A DNA stretch of 64,000 nt from Thermodesulfobacteriota bacterium (GCA_049514515.1 JBEKUZ010000008.1:9303-73302), one strand, 5' to 3'. Counted from the first letter of the stretch, positions 21,236 to 38,200 are shown. The notes: generated by a model from the sequence alone, not told the origin. Program-made: numbers and translations.

Positions 21236-21976
21236 TCAAACAATTCCGCCGTCCACGACAATCGTTTGGCCGGTGATATAGTCTGATTGGTCTGAGGCAA
21301 GAAAGAGGACGGCCCGGGCGACCTCTTCCGGCTTCCCAATCCTTCCCAGGCTGGATGATTTAATGATGGCTCCCACCTTCTCTTTGGGCATCTTGGACAC
21401 CACTTCCGATTCGATCAGGCCCGGAGCCACCGCATTCACATGGATGTTGAAAGAGCCTAACTCTCGGGCCAGGGATTTTGTGAAGCTGATCATCCCTCCC
21501 TTGGTTGCCGCATAATTGGCCTGGCCCGGAGTGCCCATGATTCCGCTGATGGAAGAGATATTGATGATCTTTCCCTTCCTCTGAGGAATCATCTTTCGAA
21601 TCACAATTCTGCAACAATAAAAAAGGCTGGTCAGATTCGCTCTAAGGAGAGAGTTCCAATCCTCATCGCTCATCAACATGAGGAAGTTATCCCTGACGAG
21701 GCCCACGTTGTTTACCAAAATATCGATCTTCCCGTATTGGGCGAAGGTCTCTTCCACCATTTCTTTTACCTGATCGGGCTGCGTGACATCCGCTTTAAAC
21801 AGGCCGACGCTGAGCCCTCCGGATTTGGATTCCTTCTTCAGATTTTCCGCGGCCTCCACGTCCTTTGAAAAATTGGCGACCACCTTTGCCCCATTCTCGG
21901 CAAAGAGAAGGGAGATCGCTTTTCCGATTCCCTTCGTTCCCCCGGTGACTATGGCTACTTGATCCTTCAATAGCAT
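21236..21976 (-). CDS. fabG: 3-oxoacyl-ACP reductase (SDR)
   Basis: TGGTKGIG cofactor motif, NNVG, S...YAATKGG catalytic triad region. Confidence 0.85.
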
Positions 21977-22245: not shown

Positions 22246-23646
22246 TCACTTTAGTTCACTCAAGGGTCTTATTCTTGGTTTCTTCATTCTTCCCACCAGC
22301 TCCCATAGGGGGCCGCGAATTCGAAATCTCCGTATTTGCTCCATTAGATTTTTCGTGATGTTGATCTCCAGTCCGGGGACGATCCACCGCTGCCTTGCAA
22401 GGGCTTTTTCCTGAACGATCTCGCTCAGCCTCCCTCCCAATTTTGGCGAAATGTAGAAATGAGGGTAGATGAGGTTAGCGTCCTGAGAGATCACCCCCTG
22501 AGAACGGGAAATTCGCTCCATTTCGGTTCCCGGATAGATTCGGATGCCCAACATCGCAATGACCGCAGTGGGATCGACTTGATCCATCAAATGGAAAGAC
22601 TCCTCGATCGTCTCTTCATCTTCCCCTGGCCCTCCGAACAGGAGATAGTGGCACTGATTCACCATCAATTTGGAACAGAGGTTTGAGGCTTGGATGATGT
22701 CCTCTCGAGTGAAAGACTTTCTGTAACTCTCAAGCATCCGCGGAGATCCTGAATCCGTCCCAAACTCGATTCCATCACACCCAGCCTCTTTCATACTTTG
22801 CAAAAGTGTCTCATTCAGAAAGCTCGGGTTGACAAAAGCACTCCATTTGACATCGACCTTTCTTCCAACTATCTCACGACATAAAGCTTCTGCATAAAAG
22901 GGTGGATAGTTAAAGATATCGTCAACAAAATAGAGGTAGTCCACGCCCTCTCCCACGAGGTGTTGAATTTCCCCTACCACATCCTCCGTCTTCCTCAGCC
23001 TGACCCTTTTCCCTTCTAACAAAGGGTAAGTGCAGTAGATACAGGAGAAGGGGCAGCCTCGCTTCGTCTGAATATTTCCCATCCCTCCCTCTTCCAAATA
23101 ACGATGGGTTTCGAAAAGACTCCGATCAGGGCTTTGGATGGGAGAGACTCGAGCTCCTTCTGTCAAAGGAGGGAAAGGCTTCTCTTTAATAAGAAGATGG
23201 GGGGATGGAGAAATGGGAACACCCTTCTCGAGATGCTTCACCAATTCCACGAACACTTTTTCCCCCTCTCCTACAACCCCAACATCGACGTCGAAATGCT
23301 GAAGAAGCTCTTTGGGTGCCAAAGAATATCCTGAGCCTCCGATGACTAAATGTGAGGAGGTGAATTGACGACATATTCCAATGACCTCCTCTACCTCTTT
23401 GAGATAAGAGATGGAGGTTGGGTAAGTGAGATTATCGAGATTTCTAAGGGAGATGCCGATCATGTCGGGTTGAAAGCGCTGAAGGGTGTTCTTGAGATCA
23501 ACCGGTACCTCTTGAGAAAAGCAGAGGTCGATGACTTCAATCGGATGGCCCTCTTCTCTTAATGCCTCGGCGATGTAAGCCAATCCCAGAGGGAAGACAG
23601 GAAAAGGCATCTTCTCACGATTGACGGAGATGAGGAGAATTTTCAT
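22246..23646 (-). CDS. B12-binding-domain radical SAM protein (class B), paralog 4
   Basis: N-terminal Rossmann-like B12 domain (MKILLISVN...GLAYIA). CX3CX2C in TKRGCPFSCIYCTY. Confidence 0.85.
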   Translation of the reverse strand: MKILLISVNREKMPFPVFPLGLAYIAEALREEGHPIEVIDLCFSQEVPVDLKNTLQRFQPDMIGISLRNLDNLTYPTSISYLKEVEEVIGICRQFTSSHLVIGGSGYSLAPKELLQHFDVDVGVVGEGEKVFVELVKHLEKGVPISPSPHLLIKEKPFPPLTEGARVSPIQSPDRSLFETHRYLEEGGMGNIQTKRGCPFSCIYCTYPLLEGKRVRLRKTEDVVGEIQHLVGEGVDYLYFVDDIFNYPPFYAEALCREIVGRKVDVKWSAFVNPSFLNETLLQSMKEAGCDGIEFGTDSGSPRMLESYRKSFTREDIIQASNLCSKLMVNQCHYLLFGGPGEDEETIEESFHLMDQVDPTAVIAMLGIRIYPGTEMERISRSQGVISQDANLIYPHFYISPKLGGRLSEIVQEKALARQRWIVPGLEINITKNLMEQIRRFRIRGPLWELVGRMKKPRIRPLSELK

Positions 23647-24991
23647 AAGGAAGTTCTTTATCTTTGATCCTTCGAATCACCTCCATCTGGGCGCCCCGTA
23701 GGACAAAGTTTGACATCAGGAAGTAAAAAAAGTGATGCTTGGGGCCCCAGAGCAGGCGCTTCAATATGGATCGAGGGGCACAGATATATTTCTGTGCCCA
23801 GAGGTATCCGTCTTGGAGTTCCTGGACAGTCATTTTTCTCGGCTCGAAGACCACATGGCTCATGTCATAATGGGACCAATTGCGGTCGAAGATCCTCCCC
23901 TCCTCCTCCAATCGCTTCTCAAGAGGCGTCCCCGGAAAGGGAGTGAGAATGGAGAAAGTGGGGAGTTCAATATTATTTTTCTGGACGAATTCAACCGTTC
24001 TTCTAAAAATGGTGGGATCGTCTCCATCGAATCCGAAGATGAAAGAACCGTGTATCCCGATTTGGTGGTGTTGGATCGTATTGACCCAATTTGATAATTC
24101 TCCAGCATTGACAAATCGTTTCGAGACGCTGTCCAGATTCTCCTGGAGAAGGGATTCGAAGCCGATGAAGAGGGAGACACAGCCGCTCTCCTGAGCCTTT
24201 TTGAGAAGCTCCTCATTCATGGCAATCTTGATGGTGGTAAACGCCATCCATTTGACCCTGTGGCGTTTAAAGATCTCAAAGAGGCCACGGGCATAGTTTT
24301 CATTAGCGGTCACGTTGTCATCGGCTAAAAAGAGGTATTCCCCTTTTTTCTCGATGATGAGGGACAGTTCCCGATCTATTTCTTCAAGCGGGCGGAGCCG
24401 ATAACGCTTCCCATTGATGATCGGAATAGAGCAGAATTCACACCGGTTCGGACAACCTCGCGTGGTCTCGATGACCTTGAAGAAGGGTCGATACCCTTCC
24501 GCCAGAAGGTCCCTCCTCGGAAGAGGCATTCCTTTTAGATCCGACCACTCCCGATTCTTATAAAACGGCTTGAGTTCCCCTGCCTCGAAGTCTCGCAGGA
24601 CTTTTTCGAGTACCCCTTCCGCCTCTCCGATGAAGACCGAGTCAGCATGCTCTTTTGCCTCCTCGGGCAAAAGGCTGGGGTGGACTCCTCCCAAAATCAC
24701 CTTGACTCCCCTCTGACGAAACCCATCCGCAATTGCATAGGCTCTATTTATCACACAGGTCAGACCGGTGATCCCTACTAAATCGACTTCCGAATTGAAA
24801 TCGACTTCTTCGACCACCTCGTTGATGATCTTGACCTCATAGGTTTTGGGAAAGAGAGAGGCGAGAAGGGTAAGGCCTAATATGGGGAAAGGGTACAACG
24901 TGTCATTGGAAAATTTAATTCCTTTCTCCCTGGGAAAGATGAGAAGAACCTTCTTCAAATGCGGATTGCGGAATGCGGATTGCGGAGTCAT
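23615..24991 (-). CDS. B12-binding-domain radical SAM protein, paralog 3
   Basis: TTRGCPNRCEFCSI. The first about 11 codons (TPQSAFRNPH) are repeat-encoded. A TTG at 24958 (LKKVLLIFP) is a plausible true start. Confidence 0.85.
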   Translation of the reverse strand: MTPQSAFRNPHLKKVLLIFPREKGIKFSNDTLYPFPILGLTLLASLFPKTYEVKIINEVVEEVDFNSEVDLVGITGLTCVINRAYAIADGFRQRGVKVILGGVHPSLLPEEAKEHADSVFIGEAEGVLEKVLRDFEAGELKPFYKNREWSDLKGMPLPRRDLLAEGYRPFFKVIETTRGCPNRCEFCSIPIINGKRYRLRPLEEIDRELSLIIEKKGEYLFLADDNVTANENYARGLFEIFKRHRVKWMAFTTIKIAMNEELLKKAQESGCVSLFIGFESLLQENLDSVSKRFVNAGELSNWVNTIQHHQIGIHGSFIFGFDGDDPTIFRRTVEFVQKNNIELPTFSILTPFPGTPLEKRLEEEGRIFDRNWSHYDMSHVVFEPRKMTVQELQDGYLWAQKYICAPRSILKRLLWGPKHHFFYFLMSNFVLRGAQMEVIRRIKDKELPYENSPHLRQS

Positions 24992-25089: not shown

Positions 25090-26511
25090 CTAGGATTCAA
25101 AGTTCGGCTGTTTCCACGGCCTTTTCGTCGCATTCTCCCAAACGTATCGGAGGATGAGCCGATAGGCCATTCGTTTGAAAGGATTCGGGTTGAAGAAGGC
25201 TCCCAGAAGGATCCTCGGTTGGGTGTAATATTTTTTCAGGTAGACTTGTTGAAGGTGATGGAGCTCCTCAGGAGACAAAAATTTTGTATCCATCACGGGA
25301 TGCATGAAATCATAATTACCCAGATCCCTCTCTCGAATCCTTCCCAACCGCTCCGCCTCTTCAAAATATTTTGTCCCTGGAAGGGGGGTAGTCAGGGTAA
25401 GTACCAGGAAGTCGCTCTGAGACTTGACGAATTGGAAGACCTCCTTGATCGACTCTCGGGAGTCATTCCAGTCTCCGAACATGATGTTGGCCATGACCAT
25501 GATCTCATTTTTTCTGAGAATATCGATGGCCTTCTGGGCCATCTCTCTGGATTGATGTTTCTCATATCGGTCGAGCACATCGGGCTGGATGCTTTCGATT
25601 CCCAGCATCACCTCATACAGTCCGAGCCGTTTCATCTCGGGGATGAGATCCTCATCTCGAATAATGTCCTTGGTCCGGGATTGAAACCAAAAATGGATGC
25701 GCAGGCCCGACTTCCCCAACTCGTCAAGGAACTCTTCCACCCGCCTCCGACTCCAGTTGAAGGTATTCTCGTTGAAGACGAAAAGCGTCTTGCCGTATTG
25801 ACGGTGCAGATGCGAAATCTCCTCTACGATTTTCTTCCCGCTCCGTCCCCTCCAGACCGCTTCCCAGAACCTGGACTCCGAGCAATAAGCGCATCGATCT
25901 CCGCAGCCGCGGCTCGTAGAAATCCCGAAGGCCCTTCTCCCCATCCCGTGCCAGTAGTAAGCGTCTTTCTCCATATCGATGAGGTGGTAGGCCGGGAGAG
26001 GAAGAGAGTCCAAATTTGGAATGGGAGGGTGTCTTTCGTTCAGAACCACCCTCCCATTCTCGCGATAGGCGATACTCTTCATCGCTCTTCCCTTCCCACC
26101 TCCGGACAGATCCTTGAGAAGCTGGGAAAAGGCGATTTCCCCTTCACCTAAGACGACGCAGTCCAGTTCCTTTAACTCCTGAAGGATTGTTTCGGCCATC
26201 AGCGTGAAATGGCTTCCTCCTGCTACGATGGTGGCGTGGGGGGAGAGTTTTCGACAGAGATGAACGGTCTGAATGGCCTCTGGCGAGAGACAGGTAGCGG
26301 AACAAGTGACGCCGATGACATCGGCTTTGGATGTGGAAACGGCAGTCTCAATATCTCTCCAGGGAGCCGGAAGGGTCGTGGCGTCAACGATTTGAACTTG
26401 ATTCCCTTCTCTTTCGAGGTAGGCACCTAATTGGAGAAGACCAAAAGAAGGGGTCCACATCCGAAGGCCCGGAAAGAGTTTATGCGGCGGATCGATCAGA
26501 AGAACTTTCAT
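25090..26511 (-). CDS. B12-binding-domain radical SAM protein, paralog 2
   Basis: TSRGCGDRCAYCSE. Start set at the internal ATG at 26511 (MKVLLIDPP), because the track start at 26532 (MGALQEN) lies in the REP unit. Confidence 0.85.
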   Translation of the reverse strand: MKVLLIDPPHKLFPGLRMWTPSFGLLQLGAYLEREGNQVQIVDATTLPAPWRDIETAVSTSKADVIGVTCSATCLSPEAIQTVHLCRKLSPHATIVAGGSHFTLMAETILQELKELDCVVLGEGEIAFSQLLKDLSGGGKGRAMKSIAYRENGRVVLNERHPPIPNLDSLPLPAYHLIDMEKDAYYWHGMGRRAFGISTSRGCGDRCAYCSESRFWEAVWRGRSGKKIVEEISHLHRQYGKTLFVFNENTFNWSRRRVEEFLDELGKSGLRIHFWFQSRTKDIIRDEDLIPEMKRLGLYEVMLGIESIQPDVLDRYEKHQSREMAQKAIDILRKNEIMVMANIMFGDWNDSRESIKEVFQFVKSQSDFLVLTLTTPLPGTKYFEEAERLGRIRERDLGNYDFMHPVMDTKFLSPEELHHLQQVYLKKYYTQPRILLGAFFNPNPFKRMAYRLILRYVWENATKRPWKQPNFES

Positions 26512-26519
26512 ATTTTCTT

Positions 26520-26577
26520 GTAGCGCCCCCATTTACTGGGGGCGATTGTTCTCGTCGGCAATGAGTGCTGACGCTAC
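26520..26577. repeat. REP doublet abutting the RAYT stop codon
   Basis: gtagcgcccccatttactgggggcg - 9 nt - gtcggcaatgagtgctgacgctac. Confidence 0.85.
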
Positions 26578-26578
26578 A

Positions 26579-27085
26579 TCACATGTATTTCTTTATCTCA
26601 GCATCGAACGATTCACTATATGGATAGTCATCAGCATTCTCTACAATGCCCTTTCTAACCGGGTTATTTCGAATATACTCGATGACCCTTTTCAAATTCT
26701 CCTCTGTCCTAATGACATGGTCAAAGGCAGATCTTTGCCATATCTTTCTTAAATTATCCTTGTCCTTGAAAACCTTGGCTGTTCTCCCTTTGAAAATATT
26801 AAGAAATTTAGGGAGTGCAACGGTCGATTCGCCGGGACATACGATTACATGTAGATGGTCAGGCATTAGACAATAGCAAAGAATTCTAAATCTAAGGTCT
26901 TTTGCAGTCTTTAGCAGTTCATTGACTACAATTGTTGCATTAACCTCTGAACCAACAATATTTTCCTTATCTTCTGTACAGATAGTCACATGGATCGGCC
27001 GGTCTTTTGAATAATCATAATTCGACAACCTGTTAGAACGACTTTCCCCCCATGTCTTGTATTGATCCTTAGCTTTTGTCTCCAT
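26579..27085 (-). mobile_element. REP-associated tyrosine transposase (RAYT, IS200/IS605 Y1-like)
   Basis: CYCLMPDHLHVIV (HUH region) and a ...NPVRKGIV tail. Flanked on both sides by directly oriented REP doublets. Start set at the ATG at 27085, because the track start at 27106 (MRALQQK) lies in the REP. Confidence 0.8.
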
Positions 27086-27093
27086 CTTTTGTT

Positions 27094-27151
27094 GTAGCGC
27101 CCTCATTTATTGAGGGCGAACGTTTTCGTCGGCAGTAAATGCCGACGCTAC
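27094..27151. repeat. REP doublet upstream of RAYT
   Basis: gtagcgccctcatttattgagggcg - 9 nt - gtcggcagtaaatgccgacgctac. Confidence 0.85.
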
Positions 27152-27155
27152 ACAT

Positions 27156-27578
27156 TTACACCTCCAAATATTTCTGCATAGCCTCGATTCGTTCGAGCAC
27201 CTCTCGAGGAACCCGGTAGAGAAGATTCCCTTTAAGGTCGGTGAGGACATGCGTGGTGAAGCCCGTTGCAAGAACCTTTCTGCTTTCTTGATCAAGGACC
27301 CGATAATGAAAGATCAGCTTAGCTACCTCTGTCCTCTCCATCGTTGTCTGGATGATGAGAGGGGCGCCAAAGGTAGCTGGGAGCTTAAACTCGCAGTTTA
27401 GTTCGACGACCGGTGCCAGATAATTTGTGTCCTTAAGCTGAAGCGGCCCCATCTGGAATCGCTGGGTTAGGTCATTTCGACCCGCCTCAAACCACCCCAC
27501 ATAGTGGCCATGCCAGACCACTCCATAAGAATCCACTTCATAGAAACGAACTTGGAGGGGCGTCTCGTGGTATTTCAT
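27156..27578 (-). CDS. Hotdog-fold (4HBT/YbgC-like) acyl thioesterase
   Basis: MKYHETPLQVRFYEVDSYGVVWHGHY. Start at the internal ATG at 27578. The track N-terminal extension is PU-repeat translation. Confidence 0.75.
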   Translation of the reverse strand: MKYHETPLQVRFYEVDSYGVVWHGHYVGWFEAGRNDLTQRFQMGPLQLKDTNYLAPVVELNCEFKLPATFGAPLIIQTTMERTEVAKLIFHYRVLDQESRKVLATGFTTHVLTDLKGNLLYRVPREVLERIEAMQKYLEV

Positions 27579-27579
27579 T

Positions 27580-28542
27580 CTAATCCTTTTTCCCCCTCTC
27601 CCTCCCCTCGCCCCCCTGGGGAGAGGGATAGGGTGAGGGGCACCCGGCCGAAAAAGCCCCTGCCTCCCGATCAATCCATCGCATCAATTTCGTAAGAGCT
27701 GCCTCATGTCCTACTTCGACGAATTGCGTAAACCCTTCCCCCAGCAAGTTCTCGACACATCGGACCCAATAGACAGGCCGTGCGATCTCTTGGGAGAGAA
27801 AATCTTTGATCTCCTCTCTCCTCAAAGGCTTGATCGTCCAATGATTGAGGACGGGAACGTTGGGAGCTTGAATCTTGATATCTTGAAGGATGGTCATAAT
27901 CTCTTGCCTGAGAGAATAAAGCGAAGAGGAATGAAGAGCCGTGTTGAAGGCAAGACGGGTGGCTGAAACCGCCTTCCTGGAAAGGGCAAGGGAAATCGCG
28001 CTGTCCACTCCCGCCTCCTCCCCCGAGAGGACGAAATGCATCGAGCCATTATAATTAGCGATGGAGAGTTGAAACCCGTTGAGGTCTTGACAGATCTTTT
28101 GGACTTCCTCCAAGGGGAGGCCGATGATGCTGGCCATGCCTCCCCGGTGAGTCACCCCTTCTTTCTTGAGGAGCCGGCCGATGGCCTCCGTGATAAAGAG
28201 CCCTTCTTCGAAGCGGATGGCTTCCGACGCGGCCAGGGCTGCGTAGATTCCCATGCTGTGTTCGGCAAGGATATCCGGATTCCATCCCGCAGCTCGAAGA
28301 CGGTAGTAGTGGACCATCGAGAGGAGGTAAGTCGCGACCTGAAGCTTGAGGCTGAAATCTTCCTCTTCGTCCTTATCCCCGAATGAGAAGTTGAGGAGAT
28401 CGAATTTCGTCTGGCTGGAAGCCCTTCTTAATAGTTCTCTAAAATGGGGATCTCCTCTCAGGGGATGATGATCTTCAAGGATCGGCTTCTCATGAAGTTG
28501 GCCGGGAAAACAGAAAGCCGTTTTCCCTGTTGATCCCATCAT
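27580..28542 (-). CDS. FabD-like acyl-carrier-protein acyltransferase, divergent
   Basis: FPGQ..., nucleophile elbow EHSMG (canonical GHSLG), ALHSS (canonical AFHS). The last about 20 aa (PSPYPSPQGGEGRERGKKD) are encoded by the PU repeat. Confidence 0.7.
   Translation of the reverse strand: MMGSTGKTAFCFPGQLHEKPILEDHHPLRGDPHFRELLRRASSQTKFDLLNFSFGDKDEEEDFSLKLQVATYLLSMVHYYRLRAAGWNPDILAEHSMGIYAALAASEAIRFEEGLFITEAIGRLLKKEGVTHRGGMASIIGLPLEEVQKICQDLNGFQLSIANYNGSMHFVLSGEEAGVDSAISLALSRKAVSATRLAFNTALHSSSLYSLRQEIMTILQDIKIQAPNVPVLNHWTIKPLRREEIKDFLSQEIARPVYWVRCVENLLGEGFTQFVEVGHEAALTKLMRWIDREAGAFSAGCPSPYPSPQGGEGRERGKKD
27592..27641. repeat. PU palindromic repeat, copy 3 (inside the 3' end of the acyltransferase ORF)
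   Basis: ccccctctccctcccctcgcccccctggggagagggatagggtgaggggc. Confidence 0.85.
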
Positions 28543-28811
28543 GCGGTCCCCTGATGTTCCAAAACATATTGGGCCATGGTTCTCACGGACTGAAAGACTT
28601 TTTTCCCTACCTCCGCATCGGGAATGACGACCCCAAACTCCTTCTCCAGGCCCAGGACGAGCTCAAGGGCGTCAATCGAGTCCAGCCCGAGGCCCTCACC
28701 GAAGAGAGGAGCATCGGTCTCGATCATCTCCGGGGTCATATCCTCAAGTTTTAGTCTCTGGATGATGAGCTGTTTAAGGGTTTCGATCAGGTGATCATTA
28801 GGTTCAACCAT
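28539..28811 (-). CDS. Acyl carrier protein
   Basis: 90 aa, LGLDSIDALELV phosphopantetheine site, 4-nt overlap with the acyltransferase start. Confidence 0.85.
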   Translation of the reverse strand: MVEPNDHLIETLKQLIIQRLKLEDMTPEMIETDAPLFGEGLGLDSIDALELVLGLEKEFGVVIPDAEVGKKVFQSVRTMAQYVLEHQGTA

Positions 28812-28829
28812 TCTTCTCCTCTTCTGTGT

Positions 28830-28873
28830 CCTCCCCTCCCCTCTCCCCGCTGGGGAGAGGGGAGGGTGAGGGG
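28830..28873. repeat. PU palindromic repeat, copy 4 (between acyltransferase and ACP genes)
   Basis: cctcccctcccctctccccgctggggagaggggagggtgagggg. Confidence 0.85.
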
Positions 28874-28874
28874 A

Positions 28875-29786
28875 TTATTCCTTCCAATAAGAGTAAAAAT
28901 TATACCATTGATCCGGGTATTTTTCGATATACCCCTCAAATTTTTTGATTAATCTCTCCATCCCCTCTCGAATAACGGCCTCCCGGGCCTTTCTCGAGGA
29001 GGGATTAAAATAGATGGGGGGCTCAATGATTCCTCTGTACTTTCGATTCTTTTCCATCACGACGAAGACGGGTAAGACCGGGGCCTCCGTGGCCATCGCG
29101 AGAATGGCGACGCCGATGGGAAAGGCCGTCTTCTTCCCAAAAAAATCGAAGACCATCGTCTTTTGAGACTCTATCCGATCCCCCAACATGGCCAGGATCT
29201 CGTTCCGCCGAAGGGCCTTGACAGCATCCAGGATCGCCATGGGAGAGTCATCCTTCGGATTGATATAGAGAATCTTTATTCCCCTCCTTCTTCTCATTTC
29301 CTCCCGAAAGGACCGGGTATCCGCATCTCTCTCGTCGAGAGTGAGGACATTGAGACTTCCTCCCCTGAAAGAGAAGAGCAATCCTCCGATCTCCCAATTC
29401 CCAAGATGGGGTGTGATACAAATCGCTCCTTTTCCGGCACGAAGGGCTTCGATCATATGATCCGCCCCTACCTCCTCTTCAACCCATCGTTCTTTATTGG
29501 ACGGACGGAGGCGATGCATCACCATGTAATCCAGAAGGTATTGTCCGTAGTTCTGGAACGTCTTGCGCGTTAAAACATCCACTCTCTCCTTTGACCACCT
29601 TCTTCTACTCACCCCTTCCATATTTTTTCGGACATGAGCTCTCGTCTTCCTCATCAGAAGATAAAAGAGATCTCCGATGACCACACTGAAGAATTTCTGG
29701 ATTGGCCGGGGGATGAGGGTGGAGCAAAACTGGAAGAAGAAGAGGTAGATAAACCGATTTAGTGATCGGGGGTGACGTTCTTCCAT
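28875..29786 (-). CDS. LpxL/HtrB-family (lysophospholipid/lipid A) acyltransferase
   Basis: 303 aa, N-terminal TM segment, ITPHLGNWEIGG (H-x-G-N-W-E motif). Confidence 0.75.
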   Translation of the reverse strand: MEERHPRSLNRFIYLFFFQFCSTLIPRPIQKFFSVVIGDLFYLLMRKTRAHVRKNMEGVSRRRWSKERVDVLTRKTFQNYGQYLLDYMVMHRLRPSNKERWVEEEVGADHMIEALRAGKGAICITPHLGNWEIGGLLFSFRGGSLNVLTLDERDADTRSFREEMRRRRGIKILYINPKDDSPMAILDAVKALRRNEILAMLGDRIESQKTMVFDFFGKKTAFPIGVAILAMATEAPVLPVFVVMEKNRKYRGIIEPPIYFNPSSRKAREAVIREGMERLIKKFEGYIEKYPDQWYNFYSYWKE

Positions 29787-29787
29787 A

Positions 29788-31158
29788 TTAACCCCCGAAG
29801 TAGTCTCTTAAAAAAGCAAGAAGCGTCCGCATACCCAAATGATGTTTCTTGACGTGATGCCAGATATCCTGAATCGCTTTCTTCGACCGGGTATAGTAGA
29901 GAAGATGTGCCTTTAGCAGAAGCCACTCCATTCGGATAAATGAGAGATGGTCGTGCTTGAAGACCAGGTGCTGCATATCAAAGAAGGACCAGGGCGATCT
30001 CCATTTGAAGATCCGGTCCTTCACCTGCTGATAGATGGCTGTCCCCGGATAAGGGGTGAGGATGGCGAACTGGGCCACATTCGTGTCGAGCTTTTTTGCA
30101 AAACGGATGGTGTCATGAATCGTCTTGGCGGTATCGTGGAGCCCCGCCAGGATATAGGAGGCATGAATCTCAAGGCCATTCCGTTTCAGCATCTCCACCG
30201 TCTGAACGGTTTCGTCCACATGAATCCCCTTCCTCAGCTCTTCGAGGGTTTTCGGGCTGGAGGATTCCACTCCGATAAAAACCGACTTTGCTCCTGCCCT
30301 CACCATCTCTTTCACCATCTCTCCATTTCGGAGCAGGAGGTCGATCCTGGAGAGGCACCACCACCAGAGGTCGAGTTCTTTTTCAACGATCCCATGGCAA
30401 ATTTCAATCACCCTTTTTGGATTGAGGTTGAAGGTATCATCCACGAAGGCGACGGCATGAAAATGATATCGATAATAAACCTCTTCGATTTCCTTTAGAA
30501 CAGAGGCCACACTCCTGGCCCTGATTTTCGTTCCCCAAAAATGGGAGGAAGAACAAAAAACGCATTGATAGGGACACCCACGGCTCGTGATCATAGGGGT
30601 AATGGGACGGCCTCCAATTTTTGTCTTTTGATAATCTTCGATATGGATCAGATGCCTGGCGGGGAGGGGAAGACTGTCGAGATCCTCGATGAAAGGTCTG
30701 GGAAGAGTTCGTACCAGCTTTCCCTTTGAAAAGAAACTAATTCCCTTGACCGAATCAAATGGACCATTTTTCTTTTCTAAGGCAGCAACCAATTCTGAAA
30801 AGGTGATCTCGCCTTCTCCGCGGACGATGAAATCAACTTTCTTCGTTGAGAGGATTTCTTCATCTACATATCCTGGATGGGGTCCCCCCATCACTACCGT
30901 GCAACCGTTGGCCTTTGCTTTCTTGGCTAATCGAAGGGCCTGACGGTGGCGGGTTGTATCCGTGGAGATACCGACCAAATCATATTTTTTAAAATCGATC
31001 TCTTCCTTCTTCCTTCGAACAGCCAAGTCCCTGACCACGACCGGTTGGCCCTCTTTCTCCGCATACGCCGCAACGTAGAGAAGGCCGAGAGGGGGAAAGA
31101 GAACCCCTGTTGCTTTTAAGGTTCCCGTAGGAGCAGGGTTGATCAATAGGATGTTCAT
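29788..31158 (-). CDS. B12-binding-domain radical SAM protein, paralog 1
   Basis: MNILLINPAP..., TSRGCPYQCVFCSS. Start at the internal ATG at 31158. The stop is 1 nt from the LpxL-like start. Confidence 0.85.
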   Translation of the reverse strand: MNILLINPAPTGTLKATGVLFPPLGLLYVAAYAEKEGQPVVVRDLAVRRKKEEIDFKKYDLVGISTDTTRHRQALRLAKKAKANGCTVVMGGPHPGYVDEEILSTKKVDFIVRGEGEITFSELVAALEKKNGPFDSVKGISFFSKGKLVRTLPRPFIEDLDSLPLPARHLIHIEDYQKTKIGGRPITPMITSRGCPYQCVFCSSSHFWGTKIRARSVASVLKEIEEVYYRYHFHAVAFVDDTFNLNPKRVIEICHGIVEKELDLWWWCLSRIDLLLRNGEMVKEMVRAGAKSVFIGVESSSPKTLEELRKGIHVDETVQTVEMLKRNGLEIHASYILAGLHDTAKTIHDTIRFAKKLDTNVAQFAILTPYPGTAIYQQVKDRIFKWRSPWSFFDMQHLVFKHDHLSFIRMEWLLLKAHLLYYTRSKKAIQDIWHHVKKHHLGMRTLLAFLRDYFGG

Positions 31159-31380: not shown

Positions 31381-32352
31381 CTATGCGCCATGCGCTATGC
31401 TATCCTTTTTTTGGCGATAGCGCTCGCAGAGGTCGCCCCAGCAGGCCACCACTTGGTGGTCCACCAGAAGCTGGATCACTTCACACTGATTTCCGCATTC
31501 TTCACAATCAAACCCCCGTGTGGAACACGACTTTTGAGGAAGATCAAATCCTCTAAATTGAGTTTTGGAGGGTTTGGCCTTCTTCACCAATTTTGCAGCC
31601 CCGATGGCACCCATGACGTCAAAATGTTCCGGGATGACGAGAGAGACCTCCAACTCTCTTTCGAGCGCTCTTTGGATGCCTCGATTCGCCGCGACACCAC
31701 CCTGGAAGACGATGGGAGAAAGGATTTCTTTCCCACGGCAGACGTTATTCAAATAGTTCTTCACCAGGGAGTCACAGAGGCCAGCCACAATATCCTCAAC
31801 AGAATGTCCGATCTGTTGCTTATGAATCATATCTGTTTCGGCAAAGACCGTGCATCGGCCTGCGATCCGGACAGGGTGGTCGGCCTTGAGCGCGAGGTCT
31901 CCGAAAGCCTCGATGGAGATCCCGAGCCTCGCTGCCTGCTGATCCAGGAAAGATCCCGTGCCTGCCGCGCAGACGGTATTCATGGCAAAGTCGACGACGA
32001 CGCCGTTCCTCAGGACGATGACCTTGGAATCCTGGCCGCCGATCTCGATGATGGTCTTGGCCTCCGGCAGGAAATCAATTACGGAAACGGCATGGGCCGT
32101 GATCTCATTTTTGACAAGATCGGCGCCTACCAGATAAGCAGCCAAATGTCTGGCACTGCCGGTGGTCGCCACTCCGTCAATAGAAACGATTTTCCTAAGC
32201 TGAGTCAGGATTTCCTCCATCCCCTGCTGGATGGCTTCGATGGGCCGCCCGCTATTGCGAATATAGGACTTGGCCAAAACCCGGTCGTCTCCGCTAAGCA
32301 CCACTAACTTGGTGGTAATGGACCCGACATCAATGCCTAAATAGTTTGCCAT
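31381..32352 (-). CDS. BcrAD/BadFG/HgdC-type ATPase (activase) with Cys-rich C-terminal tail
   Basis: MANYLGIDVGSITTK (ASKHA phosphate-1), IEIGGQDSK, CAAGTGSF. Tail CSTRGFDCEECGNQCE. Start at the ATG at 32352, because the track start (MRALQ) lies in the REP. Confidence 0.8.
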   Translation of the reverse strand: MANYLGIDVGSITTKLVVLSGDDRVLAKSYIRNSGRPIEAIQQGMEEILTQLRKIVSIDGVATTGSARHLAAYLVGADLVKNEITAHAVSVIDFLPEAKTIIEIGGQDSKVIVLRNGVVVDFAMNTVCAAGTGSFLDQQAARLGISIEAFGDLALKADHPVRIAGRCTVFAETDMIHKQQIGHSVEDIVAGLCDSLVKNYLNNVCRGKEILSPIVFQGGVAANRGIQRALERELEVSLVIPEHFDVMGAIGAAKLVKKAKPSKTQFRGFDLPQKSCSTRGFDCEECGNQCEVIQLLVDHQVVACWGDLCERYRQKKDSIAHGA

Positions 32353-32363
32353 AATAGGAATTT

Positions 32364-32418
32364 GTAGCGCCCTCATTTATTGAGGGCGGAGTCGGTCGGC
32401 AATGAATGCCGACGCTAC
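32364..32418. repeat. REP doublet
   Basis: gtagcgccctcatttattgagggcg - 6 nt - gtcggcaatgaatgccgacgctac. Confidence 0.85.
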
Positions 32419-32433
32419 TCTATTTGACCTTTG

Positions 32434-33471
32434 TCATTTGTAATTGATTTGAACTTGATTCACCTTCGGTTCATCACTCCGTGCGACATTTGAACTTTGT
32501 AATTTCTTCTGCTCTTCCACGACATCCCGGAACGCCTCCAGCCGGGTGGTCAATCCTTCCCTTCCGGTATGTTCGTCAAGGGAGAGAATGAGCAGGGGGA
32601 CGGAGGCTCTTCCCTGGACTTTCAACCTTCTTTTGATAAATTCTTGAAGAAGGGCATCGATACCGCACTTAAAGGAGGTAAGGAAGACCACTCCATCCAC
32701 CCCATCGGATAGAAAGTGAAACAGAGACCCTACAATTTCTCTCCCGGACGACCAGTAGATCTCTTTGGAGAGGTCAGAGACTTCTCGATCGATCTCCTTT
32801 TCGGAAAGAAGATCAGAGGTAACGATCTCCATTTGCAAACTTTTCGCCAGGGCAAGGAGGTCTTTGTTGATATCGGTGTCGAAGAGATTGTAAGGATGAC
32901 CGATGAAAGCGATACGGAACGGAGCTTTTTTTCTCACGGGCGACATTGGAACATCCATTTCGAAAAGCTGGGCCGTGGGAAGCCGGTTGATTCGGTCCAC
33001 CCAATCCTTCTGAAATTTGGAAAAAGACTTCTCTGCCTCTCGAAAGGCCCTCTTGCTCTCTTGCCTTGAGGCGCCCAGCTTTTCACCGATCCTTAGAAAA
33101 GTCTGAAGAAGGGACATTCCTCCTTTTCGAAGATCGATGGTTTCGTCAAGGATGGAAACATTTCCTTCCGTAGCAAGCCGCACGATGTCGGGGGCTCCCC
33201 GAAACTTAGGACACATGATGTAAGTTCGATGAATACTGACTAACCGAGGGATAAAAAGATGATCCACCTTGTCTTTCAATTGAACTGCATGCGTGACCAG
33301 AAGTTTCATCGGAAGACAACTGTCTTCGAAATAGATGATCTTCTCCTTCTGTCTTGCCCCGTCGGAAATCTTCACCCTCCAGCCCAGCCTTTCAAAAAAA
33401 GGGCGCCAGAGAGGAAGGTAGCGATAAAACATCAGGGCTCTGGGAATGCCTATGCGGCCTTTCTCTTCCAT
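32434..33471 (-). CDS. Acyl-CoA dehydratase activase-related protein (DUF2229/HgdB-like), subunit B
   Basis: MEEKGRIGIPRALMFYRYLPLWRPFFERLGW..., FKCGIDA, LSLDEHTGREGLTTRLEAF. Start at the internal ATG at 33471, giving a 22-nt overlap with the upstream gene. Confidence 0.7.
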   Translation of the reverse strand: MEEKGRIGIPRALMFYRYLPLWRPFFERLGWRVKISDGARQKEKIIYFEDSCLPMKLLVTHAVQLKDKVDHLFIPRLVSIHRTYIMCPKFRGAPDIVRLATEGNVSILDETIDLRKGGMSLLQTFLRIGEKLGASRQESKRAFREAEKSFSKFQKDWVDRINRLPTAQLFEMDVPMSPVRKKAPFRIAFIGHPYNLFDTDINKDLLALAKSLQMEIVTSDLLSEKEIDREVSDLSKEIYWSSGREIVGSLFHFLSDGVDGVVFLTSFKCGIDALLQEFIKRRLKVQGRASVPLLILSLDEHTGREGLTTRLEAFRDVVEEQKKLQSSNVARSDEPKVNQVQINYK

Positions 33472-34550
33472 TCCAACATCTCCACAAAGGCCTCGAGAAG
33501 TGTCTGAATGCGGCCTTCGATCTCTTGCTCGTCCAGGATGAGCGTCAGGATAGGAATGTCTCGGTCCCTCCCGACCTTTGTCAGAATTCCAGAGGCGGTG
33601 GTCTCCGGCATGCAGGCAAAGGGCATGAGATGGACGATCCCGTCGTATCCTTCTTGGGCTCTCAGGATGGCCTCGCCGATGGAGATATTGCATTCTGCGC
33701 CGACATCGTAACCCAGGTAAGCCTTTGATGCTTCGAAGAACCGAACGCGTTCCGAAGCCCGATCCGCCTTATTTTTGCGAAGACTCCTCAGAATATGAGT
33801 GGAGAACCAGGAGGTGCGCGTTACTTCGACGCCCAGTTCCCCCAGCTTTTGCTCCACTCCTCGATTGATATGGGGGTCCATGACCGTATAAAGCTCGCCC
33901 ACAATGGCGACCCGAAACGGGATGCGGGACCGGTCTTGCTCCATTTCCTGAAGAAGGGTCTTTCCATTTTGAATGGCTTCTTCGACGGTCTTTTGAGTTT
34001 TCGCCTCATCTACCAGGGAGAGGGCCTTCTTCAGTCGCTTTTGAGTCTCTCCTTTCTTGAGCTCCATCGGTCTGACCTTCATGGCCAATCGTTCTAAGGC
34101 TTCACAGGCCATCATCTTCTTCCATCCCATCCAGAGCCCGTAAGGGAAGAAGAGAACGTTTCTGGCGCTCAATTCTTTTCTCAGATCCTTCGTCTCCTCG
34201 TGATTCTTCCAGAGGGCCTTCCAGCTAAATCGAGGTGGAATCGTCAGCCATCGATAATGAAGGCCCATATCTTCGAGGATCACTTTTTGGACAAGGTCAT
34301 AGAGTCCGAGACGGCAAGGAGGCCCACTGCCGACCATCACAATGGTATCCGCCCCCATCTGAAGGGCTTCGATAAAATTTCCCAGGATGATTTTGAAAGG
34401 AAGACAGATACACTCATTCGAGTGGAGGACACCCAGGGTCAGGGTCTTGCGACTGGTTTCAGGAGGAAGGATGTAAGGAATGCCGGCGGTCTCTGCGATC
34501 GCCTTGCAGAAGATGTGCATCGAGCCCAGACGGGGAAAGGTCACCTTCAT
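33450..34550 (-). CDS. Acyl-CoA dehydratase activase-related protein (DUF2229/HgdB-like), subunit A
   Basis: LTLGVLHSNECICLPFKIILGNFIEALQMGADTIVMVGSGPPCRLGLY and FACMPE...ILTLILDEQE blocks, typical of the CoA-enzyme activase C-terminal region. Confidence 0.7.
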   Translation of the reverse strand: MKVTFPRLGSMHIFCKAIAETAGIPYILPPETSRKTLTLGVLHSNECICLPFKIILGNFIEALQMGADTIVMVGSGPPCRLGLYDLVQKVILEDMGLHYRWLTIPPRFSWKALWKNHEETKDLRKELSARNVLFFPYGLWMGWKKMMACEALERLAMKVRPMELKKGETQKRLKKALSLVDEAKTQKTVEEAIQNGKTLLQEMEQDRSRIPFRVAIVGELYTVMDPHINRGVEQKLGELGVEVTRTSWFSTHILRSLRKNKADRASERVRFFEASKAYLGYDVGAECNISIGEAILRAQEGYDGIVHLMPFACMPETTASGILTKVGRDRDIPILTLILDEQEIEGRIQTLLEAFVEMLEWKRKAA

Positions 34551-35956
34551 CCATGTCTACCCACTACCTTTTTCCCTGTCGAAAGGGGCTCGGGGGTTGG
34601 ACCCTCCATTTTTTCTTTCCAGGCGGCTTCCGCAATCTCTCCGTAAGCTTTCGCGTAGCTGTCGATGGCCTGTGCAAAATCCGTAAAAAGCTGCTCTGCC
34701 CCTTCATGGGTAAAGTATTTTGCGTACTGAAGGGCAAACTCCCTCCCTTTCTGAGGGTGATCGATCAGGGGACAGGCTCGAAACAAGTTCTCCGAGAAAG
34801 GCTGGTGGGATCGCATTTCCTTGAAGAGAGGAGAATTGAGAGCTTCCATGAGAGACTTCTCTTTGATATTGTCAGAAGCAAAATGGCAAAAGATACAGGG
34901 CTCGACATCCCCCTGGGCATTCACATGAAAGTACTTCCTCCCCGCGGCAATGCATCCCTGAGTGAGACAGCCATCGTTCCAGAAATCAACGAAAAGCATC
35001 GGTTTGGTGGCCCGAAAATAGGCCAGCCGTTCCCTTGCCCGACACCTCTGCTCAGGAGTCACCATGAGGGAGAGATCAGGGTTTCTTCCGATGGGGACGT
35101 AATGGAAGTTCCAGAGAAGGATGCATCCTCGCTCCACCAGAAAATCGACAAAGGCATCGCTCGTCAGGACATCGTGATTTTTGGAAGTCTGCGTCGTGGA
35201 GACAGCAAAAAAGATCCCAGCTTCTTTGAGTCGATCCATCACCCGCAGAGCTCGATCGAACTGCCCCTTGCCTCTTCTTCCATCGGTTTCTTCTCTGAGC
35301 CCTTCGAGGCTGATTGCGGGAGAGACATTCCCCAGAGCCACGAATCGATCGATCATCTTCTCGTCGATCAAGGTGGCATTGGTATAGACCTGAAACATCA
35401 TATCATCATGCTTTTCAAAGAGGTCGAAAAGATCCTGCCTCAAGAAGGGTTCTCCGCCCGTCATCATGACCAGATGGATACCCATCTCTTTACATTCCCC
35501 CATGAGCCGATCCAGCACCTCATAAGGAAGATCCTCCTGGGAATAGACCCCTGAATAACAACCATAGCAATTCAGGTTGCACCGCATCGTCGGGCTGATC
35601 AACATGGCGTCCGGCGGATAAAATCCCCTTTCTGCCTCAAAGGCCTTTCTTCGATTGGTGCCCACGAGGAGTTGGTTAACGATGAAGTTGGAGATGAGTT
35701 TTCTCCGATGATGGGGATGCGTCTCGCTGAGAACCCTCTTCGCAATCGACAGACCGGGATGATTGGTTTGGAACAGGGTGCGAATCCATCGAATCTTCTC
35801 TCGATAGGATTCCTTTTGGGGAATTTTCTCCGCAAGATAGGTCAGACGGATCAAATTCTCTGTGGAGGCGCCTGCCAGGAGAGAAAGAGCGCTCGCGGTG
35901 AATTTTTCTATGGAATATCGCTTCGCTCGCTGATAAAAATCCATCTTCCTCCTCAC
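34547..35956 (-). CDS. Radical SAM protein with SPASM/twitch-like C-terminal Cys cluster
   Basis: SPTMRCNLNCYGCY (CX3CX2C), GGEPFL, C-terminal CIAAGRKYFHVNAQGDVEPCIFC. 4-nt overlaps at both ends. Confidence 0.8.
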   Translation of the reverse strand: MRRKMDFYQRAKRYSIEKFTASALSLLAGASTENLIRLTYLAEKIPQKESYREKIRWIRTLFQTNHPGLSIAKRVLSETHPHHRRKLISNFIVNQLLVGTNRRKAFEAERGFYPPDAMLISPTMRCNLNCYGCYSGVYSQEDLPYEVLDRLMGECKEMGIHLVMMTGGEPFLRQDLFDLFEKHDDMMFQVYTNATLIDEKMIDRFVALGNVSPAISLEGLREETDGRRGKGQFDRALRVMDRLKEAGIFFAVSTTQTSKNHDVLTSDAFVDFLVERGCILLWNFHYVPIGRNPDLSLMVTPEQRCRARERLAYFRATKPMLFVDFWNDGCLTQGCIAAGRKYFHVNAQGDVEPCIFCHFASDNIKEKSLMEALNSPLFKEMRSHQPFSENLFRACPLIDHPQKGREFALQYAKYFTHEGAEQLFTDFAQAIDSYAKAYGEIAEAAWKEKMEGPTPEPLSTGKKVVGRHG

Positions 35957-36642
35957 CAGAACAGACCCCGAAGAAAAAGCATACAGACGATCCAGGTATC
36001 GGCCACTGGCCTGAAATGGCTGGAGCCGGTTCCGTCAATTCTGGGCGTATTGATAGGAACAGATAACACACTGAACCCCTTTTTGCAAGCTTTAATAAGG
36101 AGTTCCAATTCCGTCTCGAATCGGGATGTCGAGAGCTCGACCGCCCTTAACACCTCCGTCCGAATGAGTCGAAACCCGGATTGGCTGTCCAAAATGTCCG
36201 AGTGGCAGAGCCGTGAAACAGCCTTTACCCCCAAACGATTCCAAAAGCGGCGGAGGAAGGTCATTTTGTCAAACTCCGTTGCCCGGGAGGCAATGAGGAT
36301 ATCGGGTTTGACGCTTTGAAAAATCCTGAGAAGGGACGGGATTTCTGCGGGATCATGTTGACCGTCTGCATCCAGAGTGATCACCACCCGATAGTCTCTT
36401 TGGAGGATATATTGGAATCCTGTCCGAAGGGCAGCCCCCTTTCCAAGGTTAAGGGGGTGCACCAGGAGTTGGACTCTATTTTCCAAAGCCAACCGCTTCG
36501 TCTCATCCGAAGATCCGTCATCGACGACAACGATATCGCTTTTGAGAGGTTCGATTTTTTTTAGAACCGAACCAAGAGTGTCCTGAGCATTATAAGCAGG
36601 GATGAGGATACAGATTTTATCCGACCGTTGCATACAATCCAT
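35953..36642 (-). CDS. Family 2 glycosyltransferase
   Basis: ICILIPAYNAQDTL...VVVDDGSSDET...LDADGQHDP. Confidence 0.8.
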   Translation of the reverse strand: MDCMQRSDKICILIPAYNAQDTLGSVLKKIEPLKSDIVVVDDGSSDETKRLALENRVQLLVHPLNLGKGAALRTGFQYILQRDYRVVITLDADGQHDPAEIPSLLRIFQSVKPDILIASRATEFDKMTFLRRFWNRLGVKAVSRLCHSDILDSQSGFRLIRTEVLRAVELSTSRFETELELLIKACKKGFSVLSVPINTPRIDGTGSSHFRPVADTWIVCMLFLRGLFW

Positions 36643-36938: not shown

Positions 36939-38096
36939 TCATCGTCTCTCCAAAAATCGTTTCATTTCAGCATCGTACAGGAAGGTGAAAAAGGTTGCAA
37001 CCGATCCCAACAACGGAAGGGGGTCATCTTTTGAAAACACATCATAGCAAGTATTGGGATCAAAGAAGTTGAAGAAGGAAGGATCAAGGCCAAAACGTTG
37101 CGGATGGTTCAAAAAATGAAGGATGTCCCCCAGGAGAAGCCAGCGAAAACGTTTCCCCACGGCGTAGTGAAGAACGGGGTCGAAATGTTCCTTCCTGGCC
37201 ATCTTCAAAATGAGAAAGGGAAAATCAACTCCAGATACAATGGCCAGCTGTAATGAGCCCCAAAAGCGGGGGTTCACCTCCATCAATTTCGGAATCCCAT
37301 CTCTTGGATCGACTTTGAATTCGACCATGCCCACGCCAACCCAATTTAACGACTTAAGGAGGGAGAGGCCCAACTCCATGATCTGAGGATGTTCTATCCC
37401 TTCCGCCAACGTGCTGGGACCTCCTTGAATCGGATACATCCTCAACTTCTTATGAACGAAGGCAGCCTTGACGTTCGAAGCCTCATCAAACAGGGCGGAC
37501 AGCCCAAAGGTCCCTCCTCCGTCGGGAATCCATTCCTGAATCAACGGAAAAGGATACCGTCCATGGACGTTTTGATAAGACGAGCTGAGGTCCTCCCCCT
37601 TCTTTACATAGACTATGCCAAAGGAGCCGGAACTGATCCGCGGTTTAATCACTGCTGGAATTGGAATAGAGGAGGATGAAGAAGTAGGAAGGTCATAGAA
37701 TGTTTTGGGCGTTGGGATCCCGTGGGCTTCTGCAAACCGTATAAGATTTCCCTTGTCCCGCACGAATTCAATCTTTTTCAAATCGGGAATGAGGAGGTAA
37801 GCATATTTGGAGATTTCAGAATGATATTTCGCCAGCGAAAGCAGCGTTCCCTCTTCCATGGGGAAGAGGCAGTCGTACTGTTTTTTTTTAATCTCTCTCA
37901 GAATAAATTCAATAAATTGATTTGGGGATTGCTGTGGTGAAGGATAGACCAGACGCCTGGTGCAATACCTCGAAAAGAAGGAGGTATTCAGGCATGTCCG
38001 CTCTCCGACAGTGACAGGGACCCCTTTCCGACCAAGGGATCGAACCACAGCCAATGATTTTCTAAAGTGCCCATCCGTGACCAGAACACGCGCCAT
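36939..38096 (-). CDS. ATP-grasp domain protein (carboxylate-amine/thiol ligase type)
   Basis: MARVLVTDGHFRKSLAVVRSLGRKG..., AVIKPRISSGS, EWIPDGG, MVEFKVDPRDGIPKLMEVNPRFWGS. Start at the ATG at 38096. The track TTG start at 38150 reads through a repeat. Confidence 0.75.
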   Translation of the reverse strand: MARVLVTDGHFRKSLAVVRSLGRKGVPVTVGERTCLNTSFFSRYCTRRLVYPSPQQSPNQFIEFILREIKKKQYDCLFPMEEGTLLSLAKYHSEISKYAYLLIPDLKKIEFVRDKGNLIRFAEAHGIPTPKTFYDLPTSSSSSIPIPAVIKPRISSGSFGIVYVKKGEDLSSSYQNVHGRYPFPLIQEWIPDGGGTFGLSALFDEASNVKAAFVHKKLRMYPIQGGPSTLAEGIEHPQIMELGLSLLKSLNWVGVGMVEFKVDPRDGIPKLMEVNPRFWGSLQLAIVSGVDFPFLILKMARKEHFDPVLHYAVGKRFRWLLLGDILHFLNHPQRFGLDPSFFNFFDPNTCYDVFSKDDPLPLLGSVATFFTFLYDAEMKRFLERR

Positions 38097-38105
38097 GAAC
38101 TTATA

Positions 38106-38200
38106 TTGCGGATTTCGAAATGCGGATTGCGGATGAACATCTAATACCAAATCTGTCGTTTGAATTTAAACTCCGCAATCGCCACTCCGCAATCCGAAAT
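38106..38200. repeat. Inverted pair of cgcaatccgca-type repeats
   Basis: ttgcggatttcgaaatgcggattgcgga (38106-38133) is the inverted match of ctccgcaatcgccactccgcaatccgaaat (38171-38200). Related copies lie at 24959-24987 and 63136-63156. Confidence 0.75.

Follow-up and report, generated by a model that had tools for sequence, protein, structure and literature searches.

What does a FabD-like acyltransferase do when it is encoded next to an acyl carrier protein (ACP) of its own, and its nucleophile elbow departs from that of FabD? This question is raised by four genes in a 64,000-nucleotide stretch of DNA from a Thermodesulfobacteriota bacterium (the window, meaning the whole stretch analysed), which encode an LpxL-like acyltransferase, a dedicated ACP, a FabD-fold acyltransferase homologue (AT*) and a hotdog thioesterase (TE). 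Judging from its sequence and those of its relatives, AT* probably loads or removes a fatty-acyl group other than malonyl. Far from forming a self-contained unit, the four genes are one section of a type II lipid cluster whose ketosynthases are encoded elsewhere in the genome.

Results

The four genes are tightly coupled

The LpxL-like enzyme, the ACP, AT* and the TE are encoded by four intact minus-strand open reading frames, each scoring above its Pfam cut-off (Table 1). The ACP and AT* genes overlap by 4 nt (ATGA), the AT* and TE genes are separated by 1 nt, and the 63-nt gap between the LpxL-like gene and the ACP gene is filled by a GC-rich palindromic repeat. The gene order, the tight coupling and the motifs HLGNWE, DSID, GQLHEKP and EHSMG are present in the sequence just as a first-pass annotation of the window had described them. 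Ser45 is the predicted attachment site of the ACP. The start of the TE was placed at the ATG at 27578, which has a purine-rich ribosome-binding site upstream, and a TTG further upstream, at 27674, was set aside in its favour. Twenty of 23 related loci show LpxL-ACP-AT-TE in full; of the remainder, two are cut by contig ends, and one has no visible TE. Uncultured Thermodesulfobacteriota/Syntrophaceae-like genomes are the closest relatives.

The palindromic repeat occurs at 27600-27627 and at 28834-28861, the second copy being the one in the LpxL-ACP gap, and has 42 matches in the genome at no more than 3 substitutions, both strands counted. The copy at 27600-27627 is read through by AT*, adding about 20 aa to its C-terminus. 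A scan of promoters and terminators gave no surplus over shuffled sequence.

Table 1. Genes of the array and the inserted transposase region, from the head of the array to its last gene (positions counted from the first letter of the window).
Feature	Position	Strand	Remarks
ATP-grasp protein	36939..38150	-	head of array
GT2 glycosyltransferase	35953..36642	-	homologue of ApeJ N-terminal half
SPASM-type radical SAM protein	34547..35956	-	kept with AT* in Geobacter clusters (53%)
BcrAD/BadFG ATPase and two DUF2229/HGD-D proteins (three genes)	31381..34550	-	PlsA/Ger domains, split
B12-binding radical SAM protein 1	29788..31158	-	missing in several relatives
LpxL-family acyltransferase	28875..29786	-	PF03279, 124 bits; HLGNWE at residues 127-132; homologue of ApeJ C-terminal half
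Dedicated ACP	28539..28811	-	PF00550; PRK09184 family above cut-off; DSID at 44-47
FabD-fold acyltransferase homologue (AT*)	27580..28542	-	PF00698; GQLHEKP at 14, EHSMG at 94
Hotdog thioesterase (TE), ApeK-like (33%)	27156..27578	-	PF13279; 140 aa
REP-associated tyrosine transposase region	26509..27152 (transposase 26579-27106)	-	between two 70-nt repeats, after TE
B12-binding radical SAM protein 2	25090..26511	-	
B12-binding radical SAM protein 3 (DUF4070)	23615..24991	-	
TIGR04072 'lipid biosynthesis B12-binding/radical SAM protein'	22246..23646	-	385.8 bits, cut-off 360
FabG-like ketoreductase (ApeQ homologue)	21236..21976	-	last gene of array

AT* retains the catalytic residues of FabD and has lost its malonyl clamp

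The AlphaFold model of AT* (pLDDT 82.7) was assigned a FabD fold by Foldseek and could be superimposed on E. coli FabD 6U0J with a VIA Z of 34.0 and an rmsd of 2.4 Å over 289 residues, the identity between AT* and E. coli FabD (1MLA/2G2Z/6U0J) being 26-28%. When the FabD residue numbers were carried onto AT* from the 1MLA sequence, AT* was found to retain Gln11 (Q15), Gln63 (Q68), His91-Ser92 (H95-S96), Asn160 (N163) and His201 (H204); it also has a TALH motif. Arg117, the established malonyl clamp of FabD (PMC11775670), is replaced by Ile121 (position Ser+25). In FabD itself, the R117A variant loads acetyl-CoA (10.1101/2020.05.15.098798). Further replacements are Gly90 by Glu94, the nucleophile elbow being EHSMG and not the GHSxG of FabD, Gln166 by His169 and Gln250 by Glu252. 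Moreover, Lys189/Arg190 have become Val192/Ser193 and Arg287 has become Trp289, so that the basic contacts with which E. coli FabD touches CoA and AcpP (10.1101/2020.05.15.098798) are gone, although Trp289 could still stack on adenine. Against the TIGR00128 model, AT* scored 151.9 bits, under the cut-off of 260.9.

The first-pass annotation had proposed that AT* loads something other than malonate, arguing that the changes in GQLHEKP and EHSMG line the malonyl pocket, and had named the equivalents of Arg117 and Gln11 as the positions to inspect. The cited motifs turned out to be the weaker evidence: EHSMG does replace GHSxG, but Gly90 makes no known carboxylate contact, and the Gln of GQLHEKP corresponds to FabD Gln11 and is kept. 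The conclusion 'not malonate' nevertheless holds because Arg117, a residue outside both motifs, is lost in AT* and is I, V or S in 120/120 close homologues, the reverse of the conserved Arg by which the annotation would have been refuted. The word 'loads' was too narrow, since Arg-less or AT-like enzymes are known for three activities: loading, editing hydrolysis (acyl hydrolases, ZhuC, EncL) and late long-chain transfer (PfaB), the last two of which the annotation did not take into account.

Other explanations of the missing Arg were rejected. Arg123 does not stand in for Arg117, as it corresponds to FabD Lys119, a variable position (L/Q/T/K). A misalignment is excluded by the ungapped helix, by Gly118 standing at Ser+26 in 240/240 sequences and by the register control, in which all 11 FabDs have Arg at Ser+25. 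A decayed pseudogene is at odds with the invariant dyad and with the dN/dS of AT*, which is 0.10-0.20 in comparison with nine relatives.

AT* belongs to a single Arg117-less group

Among 120 close homologues of AT*, the residue at Ser+25 is I in 103, V in 16 and S in 1, and Arg in 0/120; E94, H95, S96, H204 and E252 are invariant, as are Gln15 and Asn163. Remoter relatives at 29-47% identity have in common the loss of Arg and an RW motif at FabD Lys286-Arg287. In a maximum-likelihood tree of 43 rows, one branch (100/99, all bootstrap trees) separates the 26 Arg117-less rows from the rest; because the root was drawn at the midpoint, this is to be read as a split and not as a rooted clade. The group takes in cultured Geobacter species, for instance G. 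sulfurreducens PCA, whose protein AAR33574.1 is named malonyl-CoA-ACP transacylase (FabD) in databases. The Geobacter branch (P0384 / L099:10001-10843 and homologues) has an Arg at Ser+24 in 120/120, and the window branch has none at Ser+24 or Ser+25; the two branches may differ in substrate. Some sister members have no His before the Ser (GYS, GFS), sister P0156 having GYSMG. Since acyltransferases without this Arg are familiar, the finding is only moderately surprising; what is shown here is the loss of Arg in AT* and the single Arg117-less group to which it belongs. A literature and profile search found neither a paper nor a curated model for this AT* family, which does not prove that there is none.

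Every Arg117-less member with enough flanking DNA (L058-L062, L091, L093, L095, L096, L099, L103-L106, L120-L123) lies within an aryl-polyene-like ('ladderane-like') lipid cluster with B12-radical-SAM genes, the one of Geobacter sulfurreducens included. Among 301 sampled genomes of the phylum, the EHSMG branch was found in 14, 13/14 of which match TIGR04072, and TIGR04072 was matched in 76/301, the kin in both counts not being independent. Most TIGR04072 clusters thus do without AT*; in 18 other regions, AT* was not found within ~10 kb of TIGR04072. The genome of the window also has a canonical FabD, encoded in a plsX-fabD-fabG-acpP-fabF operon (contig C54), and so do 11/11 other AT* carriers checked (12/12 in all).

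The quartet lies in a larger array

The array, which is conserved and has the quartet in its middle, runs ATP-grasp, GT2, SPASM radical SAM, two DUF2229/HGD-D, BcrAD ATPase, radical SAM, LpxL, ACP, AT*, TE, three radical SAMs and FabG. The transposase (NF047646, 105.6 bits, cut-off 80), whose two 70-nt direct repeats bear hairpins, is an insertion inside the operon and not part of the pathway. It stands at the same site in four related loci (L014, L015, L018, L022) and is absent in others; the genome has three further, more distant copies.

No ketosynthase (KS) was found in this array. A ketosynthase-free pathway was nevertheless rejected, because the array of some relatives is flanked by KS genes that have orthologues here on other contigs: in L031, L033 and L063, FabG is followed by a KS whose orthologue lies on C43 (74-77%), and in L019 and L020 the second B12-binding radical SAM gene is followed by a FabZ-MT-MT-KS-CLF block, to which a block on C9 corresponds. 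Complete single clusters with KS/CLF, FabZ and MMPL are present in G074 and G135.

The same genome holds a second large aryl-polyene/flexirubin-like type II region (G000:C9:30578-80833) with two ACPs, many KS, LolA, MMPL, HAL-like, LpxL-like, radical SAM and phytoene-desaturase-like genes. It also has a type I PKS/FAS-like gene of 2673 aa with its own KS and AT domains (G000:C26:26144-34165) and three stand-alone FabF-like genes (G000:C28:29434-30675, C74:19339-20580 and C76:5166-6479), two of which directly precede membrane histidine-kinase-like genes.

The SPASM gene adjoins the split PlsA/Ger-like module. This module is missing from the G. sulfurreducens cluster, and in L095 its two DUF2229-type genes stand beside an Arg-less AT. 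The operon's split module has one ATPase gene; a fused PlsA/Ger-like copy at G000:C51:10681-14871 has two ATPase domains. A paralogue of the SPASM protein (L083, 43% identical) has relatives in DPANN archaea, CPR, Firmicutes, Chloroflexi and Bacteroidales. [quoted passage not shown]

Discussion

Proposed priming of the cluster ACP and its alternatives

Our best explanation, which we hold tentatively and at somewhat less than an even chance, is that AT* is a priming enzyme that sets an uncharged acyl chain on the cluster ACP. From the fold, the dyad, the loss of Arg, the conservation, the gene context and the separate FabD described above, we infer an activity, a donor, a substrate, an order of steps and a product as follows. 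AT* would be an active Ser-His transacylase with its malonyl specificity lost, handing the ApeE-like ACP an uncharged acyl primer whose donor would be acyl-CoA or, possibly, the housekeeping ACP, and the malonyl units would come from the housekeeping FabD. Chain extension would fall to the KS/CLF, FabG and FabZ that belong to this cluster family (in this genome, KS and FabZ are encoded on other contigs), and tailoring to the B12-radical-SAM enzymes. The LpxL-like enzyme would then acylate a sugar-lipid made by the GT2 enzyme, as ApeJ does, and the hotdog TE would clear stalled chains.

Loading is favoured by the FabD fold, by the invariance of Ser96, His204, Gln15 and Asn163 in 120 homologues and by the dN/dS of 0.10-0.20. 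It is likewise favoured by the invariant His95 and by the adjoining TE gene; with a His before the Ser, hydrolysis is about 7-fold lower (PMC4186864), and editing acyl-ACP hydrolases (AHs; PMC11775670) often have none there. The Ile/Val of AT* at position 117 is like the hydrophobic I306 found there in the fungal FAS acetyl transferase (PMC5353594) and unlike the Gln/His that AHs typically have. Among the 14 AT*-bearing regions, none showed a FabH and one showed an acyl ligase; a precedent is GilQ, which loads propionyl in a type II system without a priming KS (PMC12664062). The idea that AT* and an acyl ligase are mutually exclusive was dropped as too weak, ligase-like matches lying near 6/18 AT*-less and 1/14 AT*-bearing regions in genomes that are not independent. 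Against loading stand the loss of the basic Lys189/Arg190/Arg287 across the clade, a less basic entrance being an AH trait, and the sister members without the His (GYS, GFS).

AT* may instead be an editing hydrolase like the trans-AT enzymes PedC and PksD or the type II enzymes ZhuC and EncL, stripping acetyl or other wrong short primers from the cluster ACP, which we regard as less probable but as a serious rival. The absence of Arg117, which has been called diagnostic of AHs (PMC11775670), the lost CoA-contact residues and the dispensability of AT* in most clusters of the family, which also counts against loading, would all suit this function, and AT-like proteins beside the type II ACPs of R1128 and enterocin are proven editing thioesterases (ZhuC, EncL; PMC12664062). 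However, AT* has neither the Gln/His at 117 nor the G(A/S/V)SL motif that are typical, though not strict, features of AHs, but Ile/Val and EHSM, and PksD needs its Gln (Q124A is inactive; PMC11775670). The His before the Ser is invariant in AT* homologues, a hotdog TE already adjoins AT*, and phmmer places AT* nearer FabD/DisD (E 1e-29) than PksD (E 5.5e-07). Nor does the loss of Arg alone make PedD a hydrolase (PMC11775670). It is unlikely that AT* is a late-acting long-chain transferase in the manner of PfaB or VinK, for which CoA, a further ACP or a lipid would be the acceptor of the complete or radical-SAM-modified chain carried by the cluster ACP: an exit route is already offered by the LpxL-like enzyme, AT* retains the Gln63 equivalent (Q68), and its likeness to the PfaB motifs may be convergent. 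That likeness consists of TALH in AT* and GYSMG in sister P0156, and PfaB, which is without Arg and has GYSMG and TAMH, transfers palmitoyl (PMC12895367). VinK moves acyl groups between ACPs (PMC6164871), and in family f13 the core that is kept together is ACP-AT*-TE-rSAM-rSAM, without KS or LpxL, which also fits a late step.

More speculative, and improbable in our view, is that AT* is the founder of an unrecognised long-chain transacylase family and would feed saturated fatty acyl chains onto its private ACP for B12-radical-SAM tailoring. The operon, with its Mss-like SPASM protein and its split Ger-like reductase, would then produce, in Desulfobacterota of anoxic habitats, an ether glycolipid that is methyl-branched and possibly spans the membrane, and would be a candidate source of orphan branched lipids. 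We give the least credence to AT* being what database names for its family say, an ordinary malonyl-CoA:ACP transacylase serving the cluster ACP, or else a non-catalytic scaffold. The invariant Ser+24 Arg might partly replace Arg117 in the Geobacter branch, but neither Ser+24 nor Ser+25 is Arg in the window clade, the TIGR00128 score lies below the cut-off and a separate canonical FabD is present; the invariant dyad speaks against a scaffold.

A conserved enzyme that could not be a malonyl loader would point at the starter or a key intermediate of ladderane-like lipid clusters, and assays of its substrate range do not require the final lipid to be known, which offers a concrete entry into an orphan pathway. 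AT* is, moreover, diagnostic of one subtype of cluster, and its family (e.g., AAR33574.1) is systematically mis-annotated as FabD. G. sulfurreducens is a tractable, though not identical, representative of the group.

Comparison with known systems

With FabD, AT* has in common the fold, Gln11, His91-Ser92, Asn160 and His201; it differs in the replacement of Arg117 by Ile and of Gly90 and Gln250 by Glu, in the lost Lys189/Arg190/Arg287, in its sub-cut-off score and separate clade, and in coexisting with a true FabD. The Arg-less or AT-like enzymes PedC/PksD, ZhuC/EncL, GilQ, the fungal FAS acetyl transferase, PfaB and VinK share a FabD fold, a Ser-His dyad and the handling of non-malonyl acyl groups, and AT* resembles them in the fold and the dyad, its non-malonyl use being predicted. 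Arg117 is absent in AHs, the fungal acetyl transferase and PfaB, as in AT*. In sequence, AT* is close to none of these enzymes (PksD, E 5.5e-07; 5CZC, E 2.4e-06). Peculiar to it are the combination of EHSMG with Ile/Val at 117, the RW motif and the setting in anaerobic radical-SAM lipid clusters.

The array also resembles the aryl polyene cluster apeA-R of E. coli CFT073 and Xenorhabdus doucetiae: its ACP corresponds to ApeE (47%), its TE to ApeK (33%) and its FabG to ApeQ (36%), its GT2 and LpxL-like enzymes together represent a split ApeJ, and relatives of the array add KS/CLF, LolA and MMPL to the likeness. ApeJ has been proposed to add an amino sugar and then to acylate it from ApeE (10.1101/2020.12.19.423268), and the transfer of an acyl group to a sugar-lipid proposed for the LpxL-like enzyme agrees with its being a homologue of the C-terminal part of ApeJ. 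Unlike the ape cluster, the array has only one ACP and additionally encodes AT*, four B12-radical-SAM enzymes, a SPASM enzyme and the PlsA/Ger-like module. In the ape cluster, the ligase ApeH is present and a FabD homologue absent; the array shows the opposite.

The four genes belong to an already known, uncharacterised lipid cluster family of anaerobic bacteria. Clusters marked by TIGR04072 were first compared by Rattray et al., who did not describe AT* (PMC2649909). With these 'ladderane-like' FASII/radical-SAM clusters of Kuenenia, Desulfotalea and Geobacter (PMC2649909), the array shares the TIGR04072 member, several radical SAM genes, an extra ACP and FabG. The orthologous cluster of G. 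sulfurreducens finds its best matches in the array, and to its ACP the ACP of the array is 60% identical.
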